Positions 4,655 through 64,000 of a stretch of 64,000 bases of DNA are shown here, one piece after another (position 1 is the first letter of the stretch; the number at the start of each line of letters is the position of its first letter). The notes beneath the pieces are model-generated. The model searched no databases. It had not been told where the DNA came from and worked only from the letters and a program-made list of their open reading frames with translations. The DNA is taken from positions 33,604,001 to 33,668,000 of the forward strand of contig JBNRSN020000007.1 of the NCBI GenBank assembly GCA_051313645.2, written 5' to 3'. This stretch comes from Centroscyllium fabricii (Eukaryota). Both the position numbers and the translations under genes were made by a program.

Positions 4655-5317
4655 AAGAATATAGGATTACACGGGATATACAGCACAGAAACAGGCCATT
4701 CGGCCCAACCAGTCCATGCCGGCATTTATGCTCCACTCGAGCCTCCTCCCGTCTTTCCTCATCATCTAACTATCAGCGTAACCCTCGATTGGGCGGCACG
4801 GTGGCATAGTGGTTAGCACTGTTGTCTCACAGCACTGGAGACCCGGGTTCAAATCCAGCCTCGGGTACTACCTGTGTGGAGTTTGCACATTCTCCCCGTG
4901 TCTGCGTGGGTTTCCTCCGGGTGCTCCGGTTTCCTCCCACAGTCCAAAGATGTGCGGGTTAGGTTGATTGGCCAGGATAAATTGACCCTTAGTGTTAGGG
5001 GGATTGAATATGTGGGGGTTACGGGGATAGGGTGGGATATGTGTCGGTGCAGGCTCGATAGGGATCGAGGGATATGGGGAGAGGGCAGGGGCGGGGTGCT
5101 GGATTTGGATGATCAGCCATGATCTCATTGAATGGCGGAGCAGGCTCGAAGGGCCGAATGGCCTACTCCTGCTCCTATCTTCTATGTTTCTATGTTTCCC
5201 TTCTCCCTCATAGGCTTGTCCAGCCTCCCCTTAAATGCATCTATATTTTTTGCTTCAACCACTCCCTGTGGTAGCGAGTTCCACATTCTCACCACTCTTT
5301 GGGTAAAGAAGTTTCCA
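4655..5317 (-). mobile_element. CR1 3' end interrupted by an HE1 SINE
   Basis: Reverse complement of a CR1 tail (ggccgaatggcctgtttctgtgctg) and of NFFTQRVVRMWNSL-coding DNA on both sides of 4791-5196. Confidence 0.8.
4791..5196 (+). mobile_element. HE1-type V-domain SINE, full length
   Basis: tRNA-derived head (A box tggcatagtgg, B box ggttcaaatcc), V domain (gtggagtttgcacattctccccgtgtctgcgtgggtttcctccgggtgctccggtttcctcccac) and CR1-derived tail ending (ttctatgt)n. Confidence 0.93.
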
Positions 5318-24635: not shown

Positions 24636-25219
24636 ATGAGAGGCGATCTTATTGAAACATATAAGATTATGAGAGGGCTTGATCGGGTGGATGCGGTGAT
24701 GATGTTCCCAATGGTGGGTGAAGCTAGGACTAGGGGGCATAATCTTAAAATAAGGGGCTGCCATTTCAAAACTGAGATGAGGAGAAACTTCTTCACTCAG
24801 AGGGTGGTGGGGCTGTGGAATTTGCTGCCCCAGAGAGCTGTGGAAGCTACTACTTTGAATAAATTTAAAACTGAGATAGACAGTTTCCTGGAATTAAAGG
24901 GAATTAGGGGTTATGGTGAGCGGGCAGGTAAGTGGACGTGAGGCTAGGTTCAGATCGGCCATGTGATCTCCTGGACCAGTTTTCGATCGCCTAGATGGGT
25001 CGGAGAGGAATTTTCCTGATTTTTTTCTCCCAAATTGGCTACTGGGTTTTTTATCTGGTTTTTCGCCTCTCCCGGGTGATCACATGGGTTTGGGCGGGAT
25101 GGAGAGTAAAAATAAAATTGAGGTTAGGATCAGATCGGCCATGATCTTGTTGAATGGCGGAGCAGGCTCGAGGGGCCGATTGGCCGACTCCTGCTCCTAT
25201 TTCTTATGTTCTTATGTTC
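24636..25219 (+). mobile_element. CR1 3' end of the long structured-3'-UTR subfamily (also 50351-50713 +, 54151-54505 -, 63126-63665 -)
   Basis: RGDLIETYKI...NFFTQRVV; ~180-nt extra UTR segment; (ATGTTCTT)n tail. Confidence 0.88.
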
Positions 25220-26170
25220 AAACCTCTTCGCCTCTCTTTCCTCCTTTAAGGCGCTTCTTAAAACCTATCATCTGCCCTGGTATCTCACGTGGCTCGGCGT
25301 CAAATTGTGTTTGAAAACGCTCCTGCCTGGAGACATTTTACTGCGTTAAAAGCATCTATATAAAGGCAAGTTGTTGTTGTAAAGCGTTTGGGATATCCTG
25401 AGGTCGTGAAAAGCGCTATATAAATGCAAGTCTTTCTTTTTTAAATGTGGGTGAGCACCTTGGGAGTAGTGACCATAATTACTGCCCAAATAGAAAGGGA
25501 AAAATGTCAGCACAAAAATGAAGACGCCAGATTGGAAAAGGGCAGATTTCAGAAAGGTAAGTAAGCCAGGTAAAGTGAGGTGAAAAGAGAAATTGACACA
25601 CCCGACTAGAGAACAATACTGGGACTTTTTTTTTATTTTTTTTAAGGAGATTGCAAAGGTGCAGAATAAGTACAAATTAAAAATAAGACTGCAAGTTGCA
25701 GAACACCATGGATAAAAAAAAAAGGTTAGAACCTAACCAAAATTGAAGAGGGGGGCATATGGGGCCGAAAGGTGTGGTAAAAATTATTTCAAGAGAGAAT
25801 AAGAGGTCAAGAAACATAGAAGATAGGAGCAGGAGTAGGCCCTTCGGCCCTGCTCCGCCAGGGATAAGGAAAGCAAAGAGGGAGTAAGAGGTGGCAATTT
25901 CAAAAAATATTAAAAACAGTAAAGTACACTACAAATATCAGTAAAAAGAGAATTGGTAAATGTGAGGGGAGACTGGAGAAGAGGGGATACAACGAGTACT
26001 TCACTTCTGTTGGTACAAAGGAAGACACAGGGGCGGAGGTAAATTGATTGAGTGTGAGGTATTAAGAAGTATAAGGAAAGCATTAGAGAAGTTAGTTAAA
26101 TTAAAGGCGGGCAAAGCGCTGGGACCTGATGGAAATGGGGTAAGAAATAGCAGAGACCCTTGAAATGATA

Positions 26171-26621: not shown

Positions 26622-27228
26622 TATAACAAGCTACCACACAGGAGAAGATTATAGGGTCTGGAATTAGAGAGAGAGAGAATGGGAGAAAGGGGGAACAGAC
26701 AGGAGGTGTTAAGGGCAGTTTCTCAGCGTGGTTGGAGGTAGTTGACGTTATCCCACAGGGTTCCGGGACTCCTCCTGTTCATTGTGTCCATCAATGATTT
26801 CTATATAAGGCTAGAGAGAGTGGTGTCCAGATTTGAAGACAACGGGCTGGATTTTGCAGTAGAATTAAACAGCGAGGCCAGCAGCGCTCACCATTATTCA
26901 CATGGAAATCAAACAGCAACTTCTGACAACCGCACCTGCGCAGTTAAACACGGAAATCAGGAGGTTGCTGACGGAGTTGCCCTGCTCCTCCAGAAGCTGC
27001 ACGACAACAGTATCTCGCCGACAGACTCACCATTCAAATACATTGAACAGCGTGAGGTCCCTGTACTTACCTCAGAAACGGACTAAACTCGCCATAAAAA
27101 GCTTGTCCATTCCAGTGTAAGTACCCTCCTAACTGCGTGATAAGTCTTAAATGCTGCCAAAAACTTCTCCGGCACTGAAAATTAAGTGTTTTAAGTGCGG
27201 AGTTTCATTCCATCAGATATTCATTATT

Positions 27229-27455
27229 ACAACAGAAAACGCTGGAGAAACTCAGCAGGCCAGGCAGCGTCGGTGGAGAGAGAAACAGAGTTGACGTTTC
27301 AGGTTGAAGACCTTTCTTCAGAACGTCTGAAGAAAGGTCATTGACCTGAAACGTTCACTCTGTTTCTCTCTCCACCAACGCTGCCTGGCCTGCTGAGTTT
27401 CTCCAGCGTTTTCTGTTGTTATTTTGGATTTCCAGCATCCGCAGTATTTTGCTAT
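27229..27455. mobile_element. Palindromic Penelope pLTR with back-to-back hammerheads
   Basis: ~94-bp inverted arms; 13-bp TSD gatatt(c/a)attatt at 27216-27228 and 27456-27468. Confidence 0.88.
27288..27324 (-). ncRNA. Minimal hammerhead ribozyme, canonical core, in host pre-mRNA sense
   Basis: GTT CTGAAGA A AGGT-CTTCA-ACCT GAAA CGTC^AAC; a mirror copy lies on the plus strand at 27325-27360. Confidence 0.78.
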
Positions 27456-49464: not shown

Positions 49465-50347
49465 GGGCCCTGTTTTCCTGTGGCCCGATTGCTGTGGGTG
49501 CGCGCTCATGTGCACCCGCGGCGCACGCGCACGTAATTTTTTATTTTTTTTCTGACGGCAATTTCCTGTGGAAAATGCCGGGGTTTTTTGCTGCGTAGGG
49601 GTCTGTTTTTTTTTGGTGCGTGGTGCTTTGTGCGTAGGTTGTGAGCAGGCCACGCCCACTGAGGTCGGCTTTCCCCCCGCACAAAGCACAGAATCGGCCT
49701 CAGGACAAAGAATATCGGGTAGGAAGCACCTTGTTTTTTTTAAGTTTCTCGGAAGCACCTTGGTTTTTTTTGTTGGAAGTGAAAAAAACACGTTTAAAGG
49801 TAAGTTTTTTTTTGATTCCTTTGCAGATATTTGTCTGTGGTCTTTCAGCTTGTAAATGGGTAGGGTTTTTTTTGTTGGTGAAAGTGAAAAAAAACCAGGT
49901 TTTTAACGCAAATTAAGCAGCTGTGATGGCCATCAGAGCTGCTGACATCGCGTTCAAAACCCGTTTTTTATTCACTTTCACCAACAAAAAAAACCCTACC
50001 CATTTACAAGCTGAAAGACCACAGACAAATATCTGCAAAGGAATCAAAAAAAAAAACTTACCTTTAAACGTGTTTCTCCACTTCTCAAAGCTGCTGCAGC
50101 ACCTCTAAGACTGCTTTTTAAATGTGCAGCTGAAGAGAGACTTGCCCACGTGATACACACGCATTTTGAGCAGCTGCCACAGGAAATCGGCAGCTCAAAG
50201 TCTTCCTGGGTAGGAAGCTGAAGCCCCTTGCCCATCAGCACAGGAAATTCAAGTTTCTGGTAATCACCCGAGCTGCACCCCCACGAGGCATTTCTGACCC
50301 CCCTTCGTGGGGGTGCAGCTCTTCTGGAGCACAGGAAAACAGGGCCC
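49465..50347. mobile_element. MITE with 18-bp TIR, ATT TSD and a large internal palindrome
   Basis: ATT|GGGCCCTGTTTTCCTGTG ... CACAGGAAAACAGGGCCC|ATT. Confidence 0.85.
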
Positions 50348-52943
50348 ATTACATTGAATAAATTTAAAACAGAGATAGACAGTTTCCTGGAAGTAAAGGG
50401 AATTAGGGGTTATGGTGAGCGGGCAGGTAAGTGGACGTGAGGCTAGGTTCAAATCGGCCATGTGATCTCCTGGACCAGTTTTCGATCGCCTAGATGGGTC
50501 GGAGAGGAATTTCCCAGATTTTTTCTCCCAAATTGGCCACTGGGTTTTTTATCTGGTTTTTCGCCTCTCCCGGGTGATCACATGGGTTTGGGCGGGATGG
50601 AGAGTAAGAATAAAATTGAGGTTAGGATCAGATCAGCCATGATCTTGTTGAATGGCGGAGCAGGCTCGAGGGGCCGATTGGCCAACTCCTGCTCCTATTT
50701 CTTATGTTCTTATGACCTAGTAACTGATGGTGGAAGTGCACGTCGGGTGAGGCCGAGAAGGAGCTCGACTGCGATGCCCCTCTGATCGAATAGCTCGCTG
50801 ATACTCTCAGTTGTGGCTCACACATGAATGATGGTCAATTGGGTGAAATGCCAGAGGGCAACTGATACCCCAGCAAGAAGTTAACAGGAGAGGACAGGAG
50901 AAAGATAGAGGTGTGTGCCAGCTTTTGATATATGGTGAAAGCAAAGAGTTCTTTCAGCACCATTTTAGGACTGGGGATTTATTTCTGCATTAGCAATGTA
51001 AGGAGGTTTGTCCTGCTACTCATGCAGTTTTGTACATTACAGCATTCCAGATGTGGGTGCTCTCGGGCAGCATGGGATTATTCAAGGACTAGCGAATTCT
51101 GCTCAGAATGGAATTATTCAATGATCAGGGAATTCTGGTAAATATCTTTAAATTCTTGTGACTATAGTAAAAATGCTGATGTTACTTTGGCTTGTAGTTT
51201 ACCACAAAACCAAAAAGTAATACAACTAAATGCCAGAAAACAATCACTATGGGGGGTATTTTCCCGAAGGTGCGGGAGCCTGGCAGGGACTGGTCGGGTC
51301 GGGTTTCTGTCCCCGCCCGCCCAAGGGCCTGGAAACCCGACGCAATTTTCCATAAATTGATCAATTAAATCCCCGCGTGCGGGGAGCCACTTGCAATTGC
51401 CTGACTCGAGTCGGCAATCAAGGCGCTGCAGCTGGGAGCGAGGACTTTGACTGACAGTTGTAGGGACTGTCTGTTGACATTTGCCATGGAAACACTCCAT
51501 TGTGACATCACAATGGATTGCAACCAATCGCAAAGCCCAACTGGTTTGAGTGACAGGTGGACGGTCGCGCTGGAAATCTTTGACAGTTAGGGACCGTCTC
51601 TCAATTCATCTGTCAAGCTACGTTTTTAATGTTTTTTCTCCACAGATGGCCCTCAGAAAAGGGAGTCACTTACACCACCAGGGTGTTGAAGGCCTGGAAA
51701 GCATTCTGCTCTAGGTCCTTCAATGCCTTGAAGGCGAAAGTGACCAAGGCCACTGTGATCCCGCTGGGTTTCACCAGCGGGGATTCAGGATGGCGGGGTT
51801 TGGGTGGGAAAGGGTTTAAAATAGGTGAGGACCCTAAAAATGGCATTATCCAGTCCAAATAAGGGCCCCCAATTACCTCAACGAGCATCCCCGCCGGTGG
51901 TGGGCGGGAAAGATTCGGAACGGCTGGACACGCTGCCCGAAACTTACAAGCCGGCGGTGATCCGGCTGGGGTCGGGACCCCCCGGTTCCGCAATTTTAGG
52001 CCCCCGCCCCGCCAGAAAGCCACCCTCACAGACCTGCAAAAATGACCCCCTTAGGTTTGAAAACAAATCTTACTGGACCAAAATGTTTCTTGCTCACAGG
52101 ATGCATGTTTCAGCTATTATGGTTTGCTAGTCAAGTTCACAGTTGCGCTGAATACGTATTACATTCCAGAACACGGGCCAAGTCTCAACACTGCCTAAGT
52201 TTACACCTGCATAACATTTACAATACCTTGAATACCCCCGGTTTAAACCACAAGGAATTACACAGAACTTTTGTCTATGGTATAGGAACAAAGTAGTAAG
52301 CTTTTAAGAAAGAAAATATCATACATGTGTTTGTCTCACTTCTAAACCGGTCTGTCAAACCCAGAAAAGGAAACAGCACAATGATTTCTTCCCAAAGTAG
52401 CAGTGATTAGTGACTTATTTAACTGAACCAAAAGCTTACCATGGACTTTTCTTAATTAGAAATTATTATTAGCCATATGCATATTAAAGCTAGAACATTT
52501 TTACAGGTTTAGATGCCCTTTTCAATTTGGGATTTGTTTATCCACTGGCTCAGGGGGCACATGATCGCATGACGTAGAGCAGAGCCTATACATACCAGGA
52601 AGGCCATGGATTAAATCTCTGGCTTATTCTCAGTTTGTCAACCTTAACCAGGGTGGTGTTATATAGACATTCTATTTGGCCTCAGCATCCCCTGCTAATT
52701 CTCTGACAGTTGCCTCTCGTAGAAAAGTGCACGTGGACATCAGGTAAAAACACTGGGCTTGGCCAGGATACACCTTCTCGTGTTCAAAAGGCGACCAACT
52801 ATCTAGGTTCAAACAAAGAATGGGTGCTTGGGCAAGTTTCCAAAGTGCGGCCTTACTCCAGGCAGAACGTCCACCTTCAGAAAACGAGGTGAGACGTTGG
52901 AATAAAATAAAAAATGACAGATGAGAACAAAATCAGGTACAGG

Positions 52944-54075: not shown

Positions 54076-55339
54076 CACCAAAGCATCGACTGTCGACCAA
54101 CATCAATCTCGTACCAGTTAGTGAGTACAACAAGTGCACTAATACATGGAACATAAGAACATAAGAAATAGGAGCAGGAGTAGGCCAATCGGCTCCTCGA
54201 GCCTGCTCCGCCATTCAATAAGATCATGGCTGATCTGATCTTAACCTCAATTTTACTTTCACTCTCCATCCCGCCCAAACCCATGTTATCACCCGGGAGA
54301 GGCGAAAAACCAGATTAAAAACCCCAGTGGCCAATTTGGGAGAAAAAAATCTGGGAAATTCCTCTCCGACCCATCTAGGCGATCGAAAACTGGTCCAGGA
54401 GATCACATGGCCGATCTGAACCTAGCCTCACGTCCACTTAACTGCCCGCTCACCATAACCCCTAATTCCCTTTACTTCCAGGAAACTGTCTATCTCTGTT
54501 TTAAATGCTCCCCGCCGAGTCTGTGAGTGCAGCTCCGCACGTCCCTGCTCTCACAAAGGTCCGACTCGGGATCTGTGCGCATTTTTAAATTTAAATTAGG
54601 GATCTGGGGGCGTTTTTTATTTAAATTTGGGATCTGTGGGCGGGGCATACACTGCGCACCTAGCGTGGCTGGACAGCCACGCAGCGCAGGAACGGGGAGG
54701 AAAGTCAGGGAGCAACTTCTGTGCGATGTTGGTGCGTGCGATAGGTGTCCGCAGGGTCCTAGCGCACGCACCAACCTGCACAGACGAAATTCTGGCCCAA
54801 TATGAACAAAATGTGCAACTCAATTATCGGCACACAAATTCGGGTCGGAGGCTTCCCGCGTGTAAGCCTCCAACCTGCACTTACCCAGCGCGCCGGCCGT
54901 TGAGCTGTGGGCCCGCGTGGAATTCCGATGCGGGGCCTGCTTCAACTGCCGGCGCGCCGCGCTCCCGTATCCCAGCGGCGAAGATAGTGCGCTGGATCAC
55001 GTGGGCCACGGAGAGCCGATCGGAGCAGAGAATGCTCCATGCATAAGTTTAACAGGAAGACCTGTCAAAAGTATGAAAACTACAAGCCCCAAAACATCAC
55101 TAAATCTTCAAATAAAGTTTATAAAAACATCACATTTTTAAAAATAAGATTCAATTTATTGTCATTGTAAAGTGAACATACACAAAACAACGAAATGCAA
55201 ACATGCAATCTCCCAAATTATTAAATGTCCTTGGTCCCAGTCTGATCCATCCCATCCCACCAGGCGCTGCAGCCACGATGCGCCCGGTGCCGGCCACGCA
55301 GGCCCTGGCGCTCCAGCCACGACGGCCTCGCAGCTCCCG

Positions 55340-62029: not shown

Positions 62030-64000
62030 CTGAAAAAGAAATGCCAGATTAATCTCTTAAATGATTTGGTCTACGGATTTTGTTTACCAAATCTTATGCT
62101 GCAGCGATTACTAAATTAGCTCTGGTCATTCTGCACAACAAACAGAGTACTTTACTGGCAAATCCTAGAACTTTACAAATGTCCAAACTCAATTCATCAC
62201 TTTTGACAGGAACACTTCGTTTTTGAAATCAGGAGTTGAATTTAATATTTGTTTTCTCCCAAAATCCCATTACAATAAACATAAACACCCTTTCTAAAGT
62301 TACTATTTCACCTCAGAACCCTCCATAAAAACATTTTAAAAATATAAGTAAATCATACAAGTTAAAATAAATCAATGCATTCTTCATGTTTTCAGGAACG
62401 CTCAATTACTGGTAAAATTGGAAACAATAGTCTTGGAACAGACTTTATATCATCTCTAGTTTTTTTATTTACTGCTTTTTAAAGGCTTGGCTTTGTGGCC
62501 TTTTGAGCATCCCTGATTATAGTCGCTCCACCATTGGTGGCCGTGCCGTCTGTTGCCTGGGCCCCAAGCTCTGGAATTCCCGCCCTAAACCTCTACGCCT
62601 CTCTACCTCGCTCTCCTCCTTTAAGACGCTCCTTAAAACCTACCTCTTTGACCAAGCTTTTGGTCACCTGCCCTAATTTATCCTTATGTGGCTCAGTGTC
62701 AGATTTTTGTCTTAAAATACTCCTGTGAAGCGCCTTGGGACGTTTTTCTAAGTTAAAGGCGCTATATAAACACAAGCTGCTGTTGTTGTGGTGTATAAAC
62801 TAACTAACATTAACCTCATCCTACCACTTCTCGCTATTATTGATGCCCAACTTTCAGCCTATAAATTTCTCACTACCACATCCACACTGAACTCAGACCC
62901 TGAAGAAAGGTCATCAACCTGAAACGGTGGGGGGTGGGGGGGATTTTGCTGGTACTGCGGGAACCTGGCGGTGATTGGTCGGGGCGGGTTCCTGTCCCGC
63001 CCGCAGACCTGGGAACCCCACGCAATTTTAATTTAATTGAGTAATTAAATCCCTGCGTGCGGCAGCCGGTGGTAATTGACTCAATCGAGTCGGAGCTGTA
63101 GCCGGCTGCGAGGAGCTTGATTGACATAAGAACATAAGAAATAGGAGCAGGAGTAGGCCAATCGGCCCCTCGAGCCTGCTCCGCCATTCAACAAGATCAT
63201 GGCTGATCTGATCCTAACCTCAATTTTATTTTAACTCTCCACCCCACCCAAACCCATGTGATCACCTGGGAGAGGCGAAAAACCAGATAAAAAACCCAGT
63301 AGCCAATTTGGGAGAAAAAATCTGGGAAATTCCTCTCCGACCCATCTAGGCGATCGAAAACTGGTCCAGATCACATGGCCGATCTGAACCTATCCTCACG
63401 TCCACTTACCTCCCCGCTCACCATAACCCCTAATTCCCTTTACTTCCAGGAAACTGTCTATCTCTGTTTTAAAATTATTCAAAGTAGTAGCATCCACAGC
63501 TCTCTGGGGCAGCAAATTCCACAGCCCCACCACCCTCTGGGTGAAGAAATTTCTCCTCATCTCTGTCCTAAATGAGTCACCCCTTATCCTTAGACTATGG
63601 CCCCTGGTTCTGGACTCTCCTACCATCGGGAACATTCTTCCTGCATCAAGTCTGTCCAGTCCAGACAGTTCCCGCACTGGTTGTTGACCGTTCCCATGGA
63701 AACAATCCACTGTGACATCACAGTCGAGTGGAACCAATGGGAAAGGTCAAGTGCTGGTGACTGACAGGTGGGCGGGCGGGCTGGCTCCGAATCCTTGATG
63801 CTCGGCACCGGCTGTCAGGAAATGTGCAAAGCTGAGATTTCTCCGTTTTTTGCCCATAGCTAGTGTATCCACCACGGAGTGACTTACTCCACTAAGGTGC
63901 TGAAGACCTGCGAAGCATTTTGCAGCATGTCCTTCAACACCTTGAAGGAGAAAGTAATGAACAGCGCTGTGCTCCCGCTGGATTTCACCAGCGGGGTTAT

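Follow-up and report, generated by a model that had tools for sequence, protein, structure and literature searches.

Some CR1 retrotransposons of the shark Centroscyllium fabricii carry, in their 3' untranslated region (UTR), a conserved RNA element that is real and apparently undescribed. Its sequence, copy number, position, covariation, sharing between lineages and capture by a retrovirus are direct observations. By its predicted anatomy the element is ENE-like, and we consider the chances evenly balanced that this conserved, covarying segment acts as an ENE-type clamp, with a poly(A) tail as the likely third strand. In the full-text literature searched, outside which most subscription papers lie, no paper was found to link CR1 to an ENE or to a U-rich internal loop, in agreement with the first-pass annotation of this DNA, which knew of no such description for vertebrate CR1.

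A structured segment in the 3' UTR of CR1 copies

The window, by which we mean the whole 64-kb stretch of DNA analysed (contig JBNRSN020000007.1, positions 33,604,001 to 33,668,000), contains 19 CR1-type tails. Four of them belong to long-3'-UTR copies, with a mean column identity of 95%, and carry the segment; these are the four copies to which the first-pass annotation had drawn attention, all of them located, and its further claim that other CR1 tails are segment-free holds for the remaining 15. By eye, nine of these 15 are ends of HE1-like SINEs, four are ends of short-UTR CR1 LINEs and two are ambiguous. The SINEs, which make up the majority of the segment-less tails, bear the CR1 terminal tail and lie at window positions 5111, 12340, 14853, 15330, 28873, 35598, 38889, 40414 and 61823. 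The segment starts at the ORF2 stop codon; its layout is listed here for copy 1, the copy originally flagged, followed by the positions of the other three.

24640..24941, + strand: 3' end of CR1 ORF2 of copy 1, which is 5'-truncated; stop codon TGA at 24939-24941
24940-25220, + strand: long 3' UTR of copy 1
24940..24963, + strand: first unit of the near-direct repeat; subfamily A only
24959..25087, + strand: structured core; outer stem 24959-24973 / 25073-25087 closes the three-way junction, a layout also present in the fish sequences
24974..25001, + strand: side hairpin; GCC of its loop region common to 4 of 5 fish sequences
25002..25072, + strand: hairpin with double U-rich internal loop
25002-25008 / 25066-25072, + strand: lower stem of this hairpin
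25009-25014 / 25059-25065, + strand: lower loop
25015-25019 / 25054-25058, + strand: middle stem, with a U-U mismatch in copy 1
25020-25028 / 25047-25053, + strand: upper loop
25029-25032 / 25043-25046, + strand: upper stem
25108..25117, + strand: A-rich tract, with AATAAA at 25111-25116; subfamily A only
25120..25143, + strand: second repeat unit, the start of the ordinary CR1/HER1-type tail
25159..25220, + strand: ordinary CR1 terminal hairpin and microsatellite end
50439..50714, + strand: long 3' UTR of copy 2, the best-folding copy; double-loop hairpin 50501-50570
54149..54429, - strand: long 3' UTR of copy 3; double-loop hairpin 54296-54367
63124..63397, - strand: long 3' UTR of copy 4, of another ORF2 lineage; hairpin 63269-63338; 3-nt deletion in the outer stem

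The near-direct repeat said to bracket the segment is indeed found at 24940-24963 and 25120-25143, as a property of subfamily A (see below). The side-hairpin loop of the shark copies contains a self-complementary CGATCG hexamer (24984-24989), a possible kissing loop that is not kept in the fish sequences. Elsewhere in the window, at 49804-50055 and 27227-27420, are long, near-perfect, MITE-like inverted repeats for which Rfam picks only sub-threshold miRNA matches.

The open frame that ends at the segment-start stop, at locus L012, encodes an RVT_1 reverse-transcriptase protein, and the U-rich strand is thus the sense strand of a CR1 3' UTR. Traits of the CR1 clade are all found here: an ORF2 reverse transcriptase related to that of vertebrate CR1, a 3' hairpin and a microsatellite end. 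The closest named ORF2 relatives by identity (63-68%) are those of rays and sharks. A terminal hairpin and microsatellite end are described for amniote CR1 in the available part of PMC4316615, and the HE1/HER1 SINE/LINE pair is listed for sharks and rays in that of PMC3747384; the SINE and tail types of the window fit the latter. The module is present on three CR1 ORF2 lineages of 69-82% mutual identity, as judged from the 13 usable regions of 16 fetched, which points to swapping of 3' ends. By eye, the 5' ends of five long shark copies hold no such hairpin. In one copy of the third ORF2 lineage (L448), the 5' region, ~4.0-4.5 kb upstream of the core, contains a tandem array of 30-nt units that include T runs.

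Genome-wide copies and subfamilies

Searching the 7.2 Gb of the genome for core patterns yielded at least 35,678 exact matches, 24,511 in which the middle stem (CCAGA/UCUGG) has an A-U pair and 11,167 in which it has a compensatory G-C pair (CCGGA/UCCGG); reversed-pattern controls yielded 0. Exact patterns with mixed forms of this pair matched 402 times for G-U and 990 times for A-C, and the mixed forms listed mostly resemble copies of the G-C subfamily with CpG decay. The A-U to G-C change is one compensatory event, and the sole truly compensatory pair within this genome. Core patterns with other lower-stem variants had no matches in the genome. The first-pass annotation had made its idea depend on covarying stems and conserved U-rich loops, and both are found across subfamilies and distant fish: the covariation consists of this one pair genome-wide and several more relative to the fish sequences, counted by eye.

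Subfamily B (G-C) keeps the core, with a perfect 11-bp outer stem, and is without the first repeat unit and the A tract. Column majorities of A and B differ at 18 of 29 positions before the core, at 17 of 51 spacer positions and 8 of 69 terminal-hairpin positions, and at 16 of 122 in the core, the last figure being biased towards conservation because copies were chosen by their core pattern. The 418 shortened forms found were considered as a single-loop subfamily and rejected, since they look like scattered deletions. The collapsed form, in which the segment is deleted between the repeats and the short UTR restored, has only seven exact matches (L457-L463); all seven are on the forward strand, possibly by chance or as a search artefact. 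Three public RNA runs, each under a different organism label, contain both the A-U and the G-C form, and in run X13 a single contig has both changes; the runs were sampled in small shares, as assembled contigs, which cannot show RNA ends.

In many B copies an intact tail comes second, after a first terminal hairpin and microsatellite in which decay has been chiefly from A to G. The loci concerned are L178, L179, L183, L185, L186, L192-L194, L203, L205 and L207, downstream of the core, together with L121, L128, L129 and L141; in retrovirus-borne copies, A-to-G accounts for 5 of 7 shared tail changes. The pattern resembles ADAR editing that retrotransposition would have fixed after the terminal hairpin had become dispensable.

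Predicted folding of the segment

The minimum-energy fold of copy 2 is exactly the structure that had been drawn by eye in the first-pass annotation (z -4.30, with 0 of 200 shuffles as good), and the same hairpin is predicted for copy 3 (z -2.54) and copy 4 (z -1.18). For the flagged copy 1 (24940-25145) that description fails: z is -0.24, a different fold is predicted and the lower-stem probability is 0.0. The lower-loop and middle-stem letters given in that annotation match copies 2-4 and not copy 1. Good folds are predicted for the opposite strand too (z -3.33 and -4.05), so folding energy alone does not settle the strand.

The predicted fold displays the features of an ENE—U runs on both loop strands, short flanking duplexes and loop-adjacent G-C pairs. 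The upper loop has U5-7 on each strand, and the 5' strand of the lower loop only U3-4, after two A. Two G-C pairs close the lower loop in the shark and in all five of the fish sequences described below; the duplex between the two loops is 5-6 bp long in shark copies and 2-4 bp in four of the fish sequences, the fifth being single-loop. An ENE-like descriptor found seven matches in 464 kb (the window plus 40 stretches at round coordinates), every one of them in this same CR1 element, and none in five shuffles made from the same DNA; copy 1, with its U-U mismatch in the middle stem, was missed. A search of the window with the 4227 covariance models of Rfam gave no match to the element at E up to 5, and no ENE match; on a subfamily-B copy it gave sub-threshold chance matches only.

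Folding sampled copies at 37 C revealed differences between groups. With the core alone, a lower-stem probability of at least 0.5 is reached by 30/30 B copies, 25/30 A, 26/27 retrovirus-borne and 12/26 copy-1-like copies; in the context of the whole UTR the counts are 27/30, 17/30, 23/27 and 7/26, respectively, copies without a pattern match (3/30 retrovirus-borne, 4/30 copy-1-like) being left out of both sets. Counts are lower at 15 C than at 37 C. A competing local hairpin is predicted in subfamily A and affects many A copies, the flagged one included; this hairpin and the U-U middle-stem mismatch, present in 14 of 26 copy-1-like copies, count against strict constraint in A.

Related elements in bony-fish CR1

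The supplement of PMC13343379 provides consensus sequences of vertebrate CR1-group elements, termed rows here. The comparison covers the first 400 nt of each row. By eye, five CR1 rows from ray-finned fish have the same three-way junction and U-rich loop or loops, with stems that are altered yet pair. In AlbGor_CR1-1, AldAff_CR1-1, MegCyp_CR1-1 and PolSen_CR1-2 the outer stem, side hairpin, lower stem, middle stem, upper loop and upper stem follow one another in the same order; the 5' side reads GG-AAUUU, the 3' side a U run-CG-CC, and the upper loop is U/U. Counted by eye, pairs in their lower stems number 6/6, 6/7, 7/7 and 7/7 and in their outer stems 10/11, 10/10, 10/11 and 10/10; two rows have the middle stem CCAC/GUGG, the other two CA/UG and AAAG/CUUU. 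We take the codes AlbGor, AldAff, MegCyp and PolSen to denote bonefish, halosaur, tarpon and bichir. The fifth row, AldAff_CR1-2, is a single-loop form in which the side hairpin is the same and the shark apical motif is present; an AAUU-GGC-like apical motif is common to the shark and three fish rows. Of ten rows that match the 3' loop motif, all four CR1 rows have the whole layout by eye, and none of the six L2/Rex1 rows.

The fish rows are 4.6-5.8 kb long and the element, within their first 400 nt, is ~4-5 kb from the 3' end. It is thus near the 5' end, apparently in the 5' UTR, if the rows are in sense orientation, as are other rows of the table in which an ORF1 start is visible. In two fish rows AATAAA also occurs upstream of the element.

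The notion that this shark subfamily had acquired an ENE is not supported by these sequences, since the fold is common to bony-fish CR1. The simple reading is vertical descent from early jawed vertebrates, with horizontal transfer as the alternative; early jawed vertebrates date from ~450 million years ago. A similar motif may be present in frog and turtle CR1 3' UTRs, and is not counted here as evidence.

Other collections contained nothing comparable. The supplements of PMC4316615 (two of three files) and PMC11303007 (the available part) have nothing on the element, and a squamate CR1 supplement has no match to it. Scans of metagenomes (80 CR1 ends) and genomes (7), whose CR1 ends are mostly invertebrate-like or bird-like with short UTRs, show none by eye among the matches listed. 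Viral scans gave no relative, or chance matches, and nothing came from plasmids or from five prokaryote genomes that include CR1-like contigs.

Capture by an endogenous retrovirus family

Five of the 30 sampled A loci are retrovirus-borne: the long flanks that they share are part of an element that has a retroviral integrase and is bounded by 480-bp LTRs of 98.8-99% identity. An anchor for this family, placed just downstream of the module, has 462 matches, and 29 of the first 30 loci sampled (L364-L393; G000:C1:14664400-14684399) carry the CR1 3' module. Its 5' junction is of two types: in 22 copies the module begins 10 nt ahead of the outer stem, and in the other 7 it begins 40 nt ahead. The module interrupts the retroviral reading frame at what we take, in a region with no Pfam match, to be the env position, 0.69 kb before the 3' LTR and ~1.09 kb before the AATAAA of the LTR. 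Env loss alone can drive retroviral expansion and could account for that of this family.

Counting the changes relative to window copy 2 that recur in at least eight retrovirus copies gives 3 for the core, 9 for the spacer and 7 for the tail. Two of the three core changes are in the side hairpin and one is in the apical loop; the double-loop hairpin has none in its stems or U runs, a pattern consistent with the fold having been kept in an RNA that is polyadenylated. A module copy next to the 3' LTR of a Gypsy-like element was considered as a second capture and rejected, since it occurs only once.

Possible mechanism and alternative readings

The predicted three-way junction would bear two stacked U-rich internal loops, which may, as an ENE does, bind an A-run through U-A-U triples. 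The third strand would likely be a poly(A) tail that the transcript receives, rather than the A tract encoded nearby in the genome; CR1 RNA might be polyadenylated after downstream read-through, or at the AATAAA of subfamily A. The triplex would stabilise the intronless CR1 transcript, and such a rise in RNA level would explain the spread of the segment. The ENE idea of the first-pass annotation survives in that loop geometry matches ENE descriptions and the stems covary; its choice of the A tract in cis as third strand does not. CR1 copies end in microsatellites, which makes the poly(A) tail an assumption. Against a clamp are also the shortness of the U run on the 5' strand of the lower loop (3-4 U), the 5' position in fish, which differs from that of the ENEs described in reviews, the competing fold predicted for many subfamily-A copies, and the many CR1 ends that are without the element, namely most tails in the window and the bird and invertebrate ends inspected. 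Possible, and to our minds doubtful, is the wider proposition that CR1, the dominant retrotransposon of most vertebrates, has had since early jawed vertebrates a portable triple-helix module that would grip an A-run, work from either end of the RNA, be swapped between CR1 lineages and be captured by an endogenous retrovirus; were it true, CR1 RNAs would depend on a poly(A) tail absent from their DNA copies.

Selection might instead have acted on the fold as a platform for proteins of nuclear export, RNP packaging or translation control, the loops being U-U pairs or protein contacts and no A strand being involved. Export elements of intronless retroelement RNAs are position-independent, a behaviour that would suit an element found at either end of CR1, in the 3' UTR in shark and in the first 400 nt of the fish rows. 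Some invariant letters, moreover, go beyond what a poly(A) clamp needs: the AA of the lower loop, the CG before the lower stem, the GCC of the side hairpin and the AAUU-GGC-like apical motif. This reading leaves aside the ENE signature of U runs on both loop strands closed by G-C pairs, as well as the existence, as for ENEs, of both single- and double-loop forms; we think it rather unlikely.

Binding of a genome-encoded A-run in cis, as in MALAT1 or, with the 5' A-run of fish, in a pseudoknot-like variant, appears improbable. A-rich runs do directly precede the outer stem in two fish rows and lie ~55 nt before it in two more, and the A tract of copy 1 is where the first-pass annotation had placed it (25108-25117). 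An AATAAA-containing tract is present at 22/30 subfamily-A loci; but it is at 0/30 loci of subfamily B, which folds best. The tract has runs of only 4-5 A, is ~100 nt inside the element end, and has no tRNA-like processing signal for a neighbour: ARAGORN, which may miss mascRNA-like folds, found no tRNA gene in the window. It is equally readable as a polyadenylation signal, the AATAAA at 25111-25116 being followed by CA and a GU-rich stretch (25134-25152); cleavage there would cut off the terminal hairpin. Since neither the tract nor the direct repeat is conserved (0/30 B), a MALAT1-type triplex in cis is unlikely, as is a role in priming.

That the segment is a neutral passenger, a hairpin with no function, we hold to be very improbable. 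Many A copies are predicted to misfold, one sub-lineage has spread with the middle-stem mismatch, and template switching can swap 3' ends without selection; against this, the stems of a cartilaginous fish and of four bony-fish species differ by multiple compensatory changes while the loops stay fixed, which would be unexpected without structural selection.

Hardly credible at all is a role for the segment in shaping the 3' end for target-primed reverse transcription, as the first-pass annotation had suggested, or in recognition by ORF2p: it does lie between the ORF2 stop and the terminal hairpin, and CR1 3' UTRs are proposed recognition sites for the reverse transcriptase (PMC4316615 and PMC3747384, in the parts available), but the same terminal tail is found on SINEs and short-UTR CR1s that spread with no such segment (15/19 window tails are segment-free), it is at the opposite end in the fish rows, and it is kept in an LTR element, which primes differently.

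Even if it is not an ENE, the element is a structured RNA common to CR1s of cartilaginous and bony fish, with tens of thousands of copies and no match in Rfam, and each copy inserted in a host transcript could affect host RNA. CR1 RNA leaves no poly(A) in its copies, and the element makes the question of how this RNA ends and survives directly testable with a 120-nt RNA.

Comparison with known systems

Among CR1 relatives, the HER1 LINE and HE1 SINE of sharks and rays end in a terminal hairpin and microsatellite, and this ordinary tail directly follows the segment, which is a separate, optional module upstream of it; the available parts of PMC4316615 and PMC3747384 mention only the terminal hairpin.

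The ENE is defined in the available part of PMC7583470 as a U-rich internal loop adjoining G-C pairs, with single- or double-domain forms. With MALAT1 and MEN-beta, judged by the MALAT1 sequence (PMC9576543, in part), the CR1 element shares a purine-only 5' strand of the lower stem ending in GG, an upper stem opening with CC/GG, U runs on both sides of the loop, a 3' U run followed by a short step (2-nt in the CR1 element) and CC, and G-C pairs that close the loop. In MALAT1, one long loop takes the place of the two short ones of CR1. A further difference from MALAT1-type elements is the A tract of CR1, neither conserved nor terminal and with no tRNA-like neighbour.

Nearer in layout are the double ENEs (dENEs) of plant and fungal transposons, such as rice TWIFB1. 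According to the accessible parts of the literature, these too reside in transposable elements and have two U-rich loops with a short duplex between them, the upper loop with U on both sides, the lower with extra letters, and flanking G-C pairs. Where the CR1 lower loop has two invariant A, the dENE is described in review as having an adenosine triad, and PMC13541005 and PMC12501189, as far as available, report this triad together with a pocket. The lower stem of CR1 is unbroken, unlike the interrupted A-minor stem of the dENE in review descriptions; the CR1 hairpin also has a 2-nt step, and the dENE a 3-4 nt bulge and a pocket for the 3' end. CR1 also differs in being a non-LTR host with copies that lack poly(A), in mounting the hairpin on a three-way junction, and in its 5'-end position in fish.

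Transposable-element ENEs are named in the available parts of reviews for plants, fungi, a slime mold and stickleback retroviruses, and for no vertebrate LINE; the stickleback case, the only one from a fish in the accessible part of PMC7583470, is retroviral and not CR1. With the single-domain ENEs of KSHV PAN RNA, Evade and the stickleback retrovirus, AldAff_CR1-2 shares, as far as those sources go, one U-rich loop between G-C stems. ENE function has been shown for PAN RNA and Evade, whereas the CR1 element is known from its sequence and predicted fold. The Evade ENE is located between the ORF and the 3' LTR in the available parts of PMC13541005 and PMC12501189, and the retrovirus-borne CR1 module likewise sits between coding region and 3' LTR, the position occupied by ENEs of plant retrotransposons.
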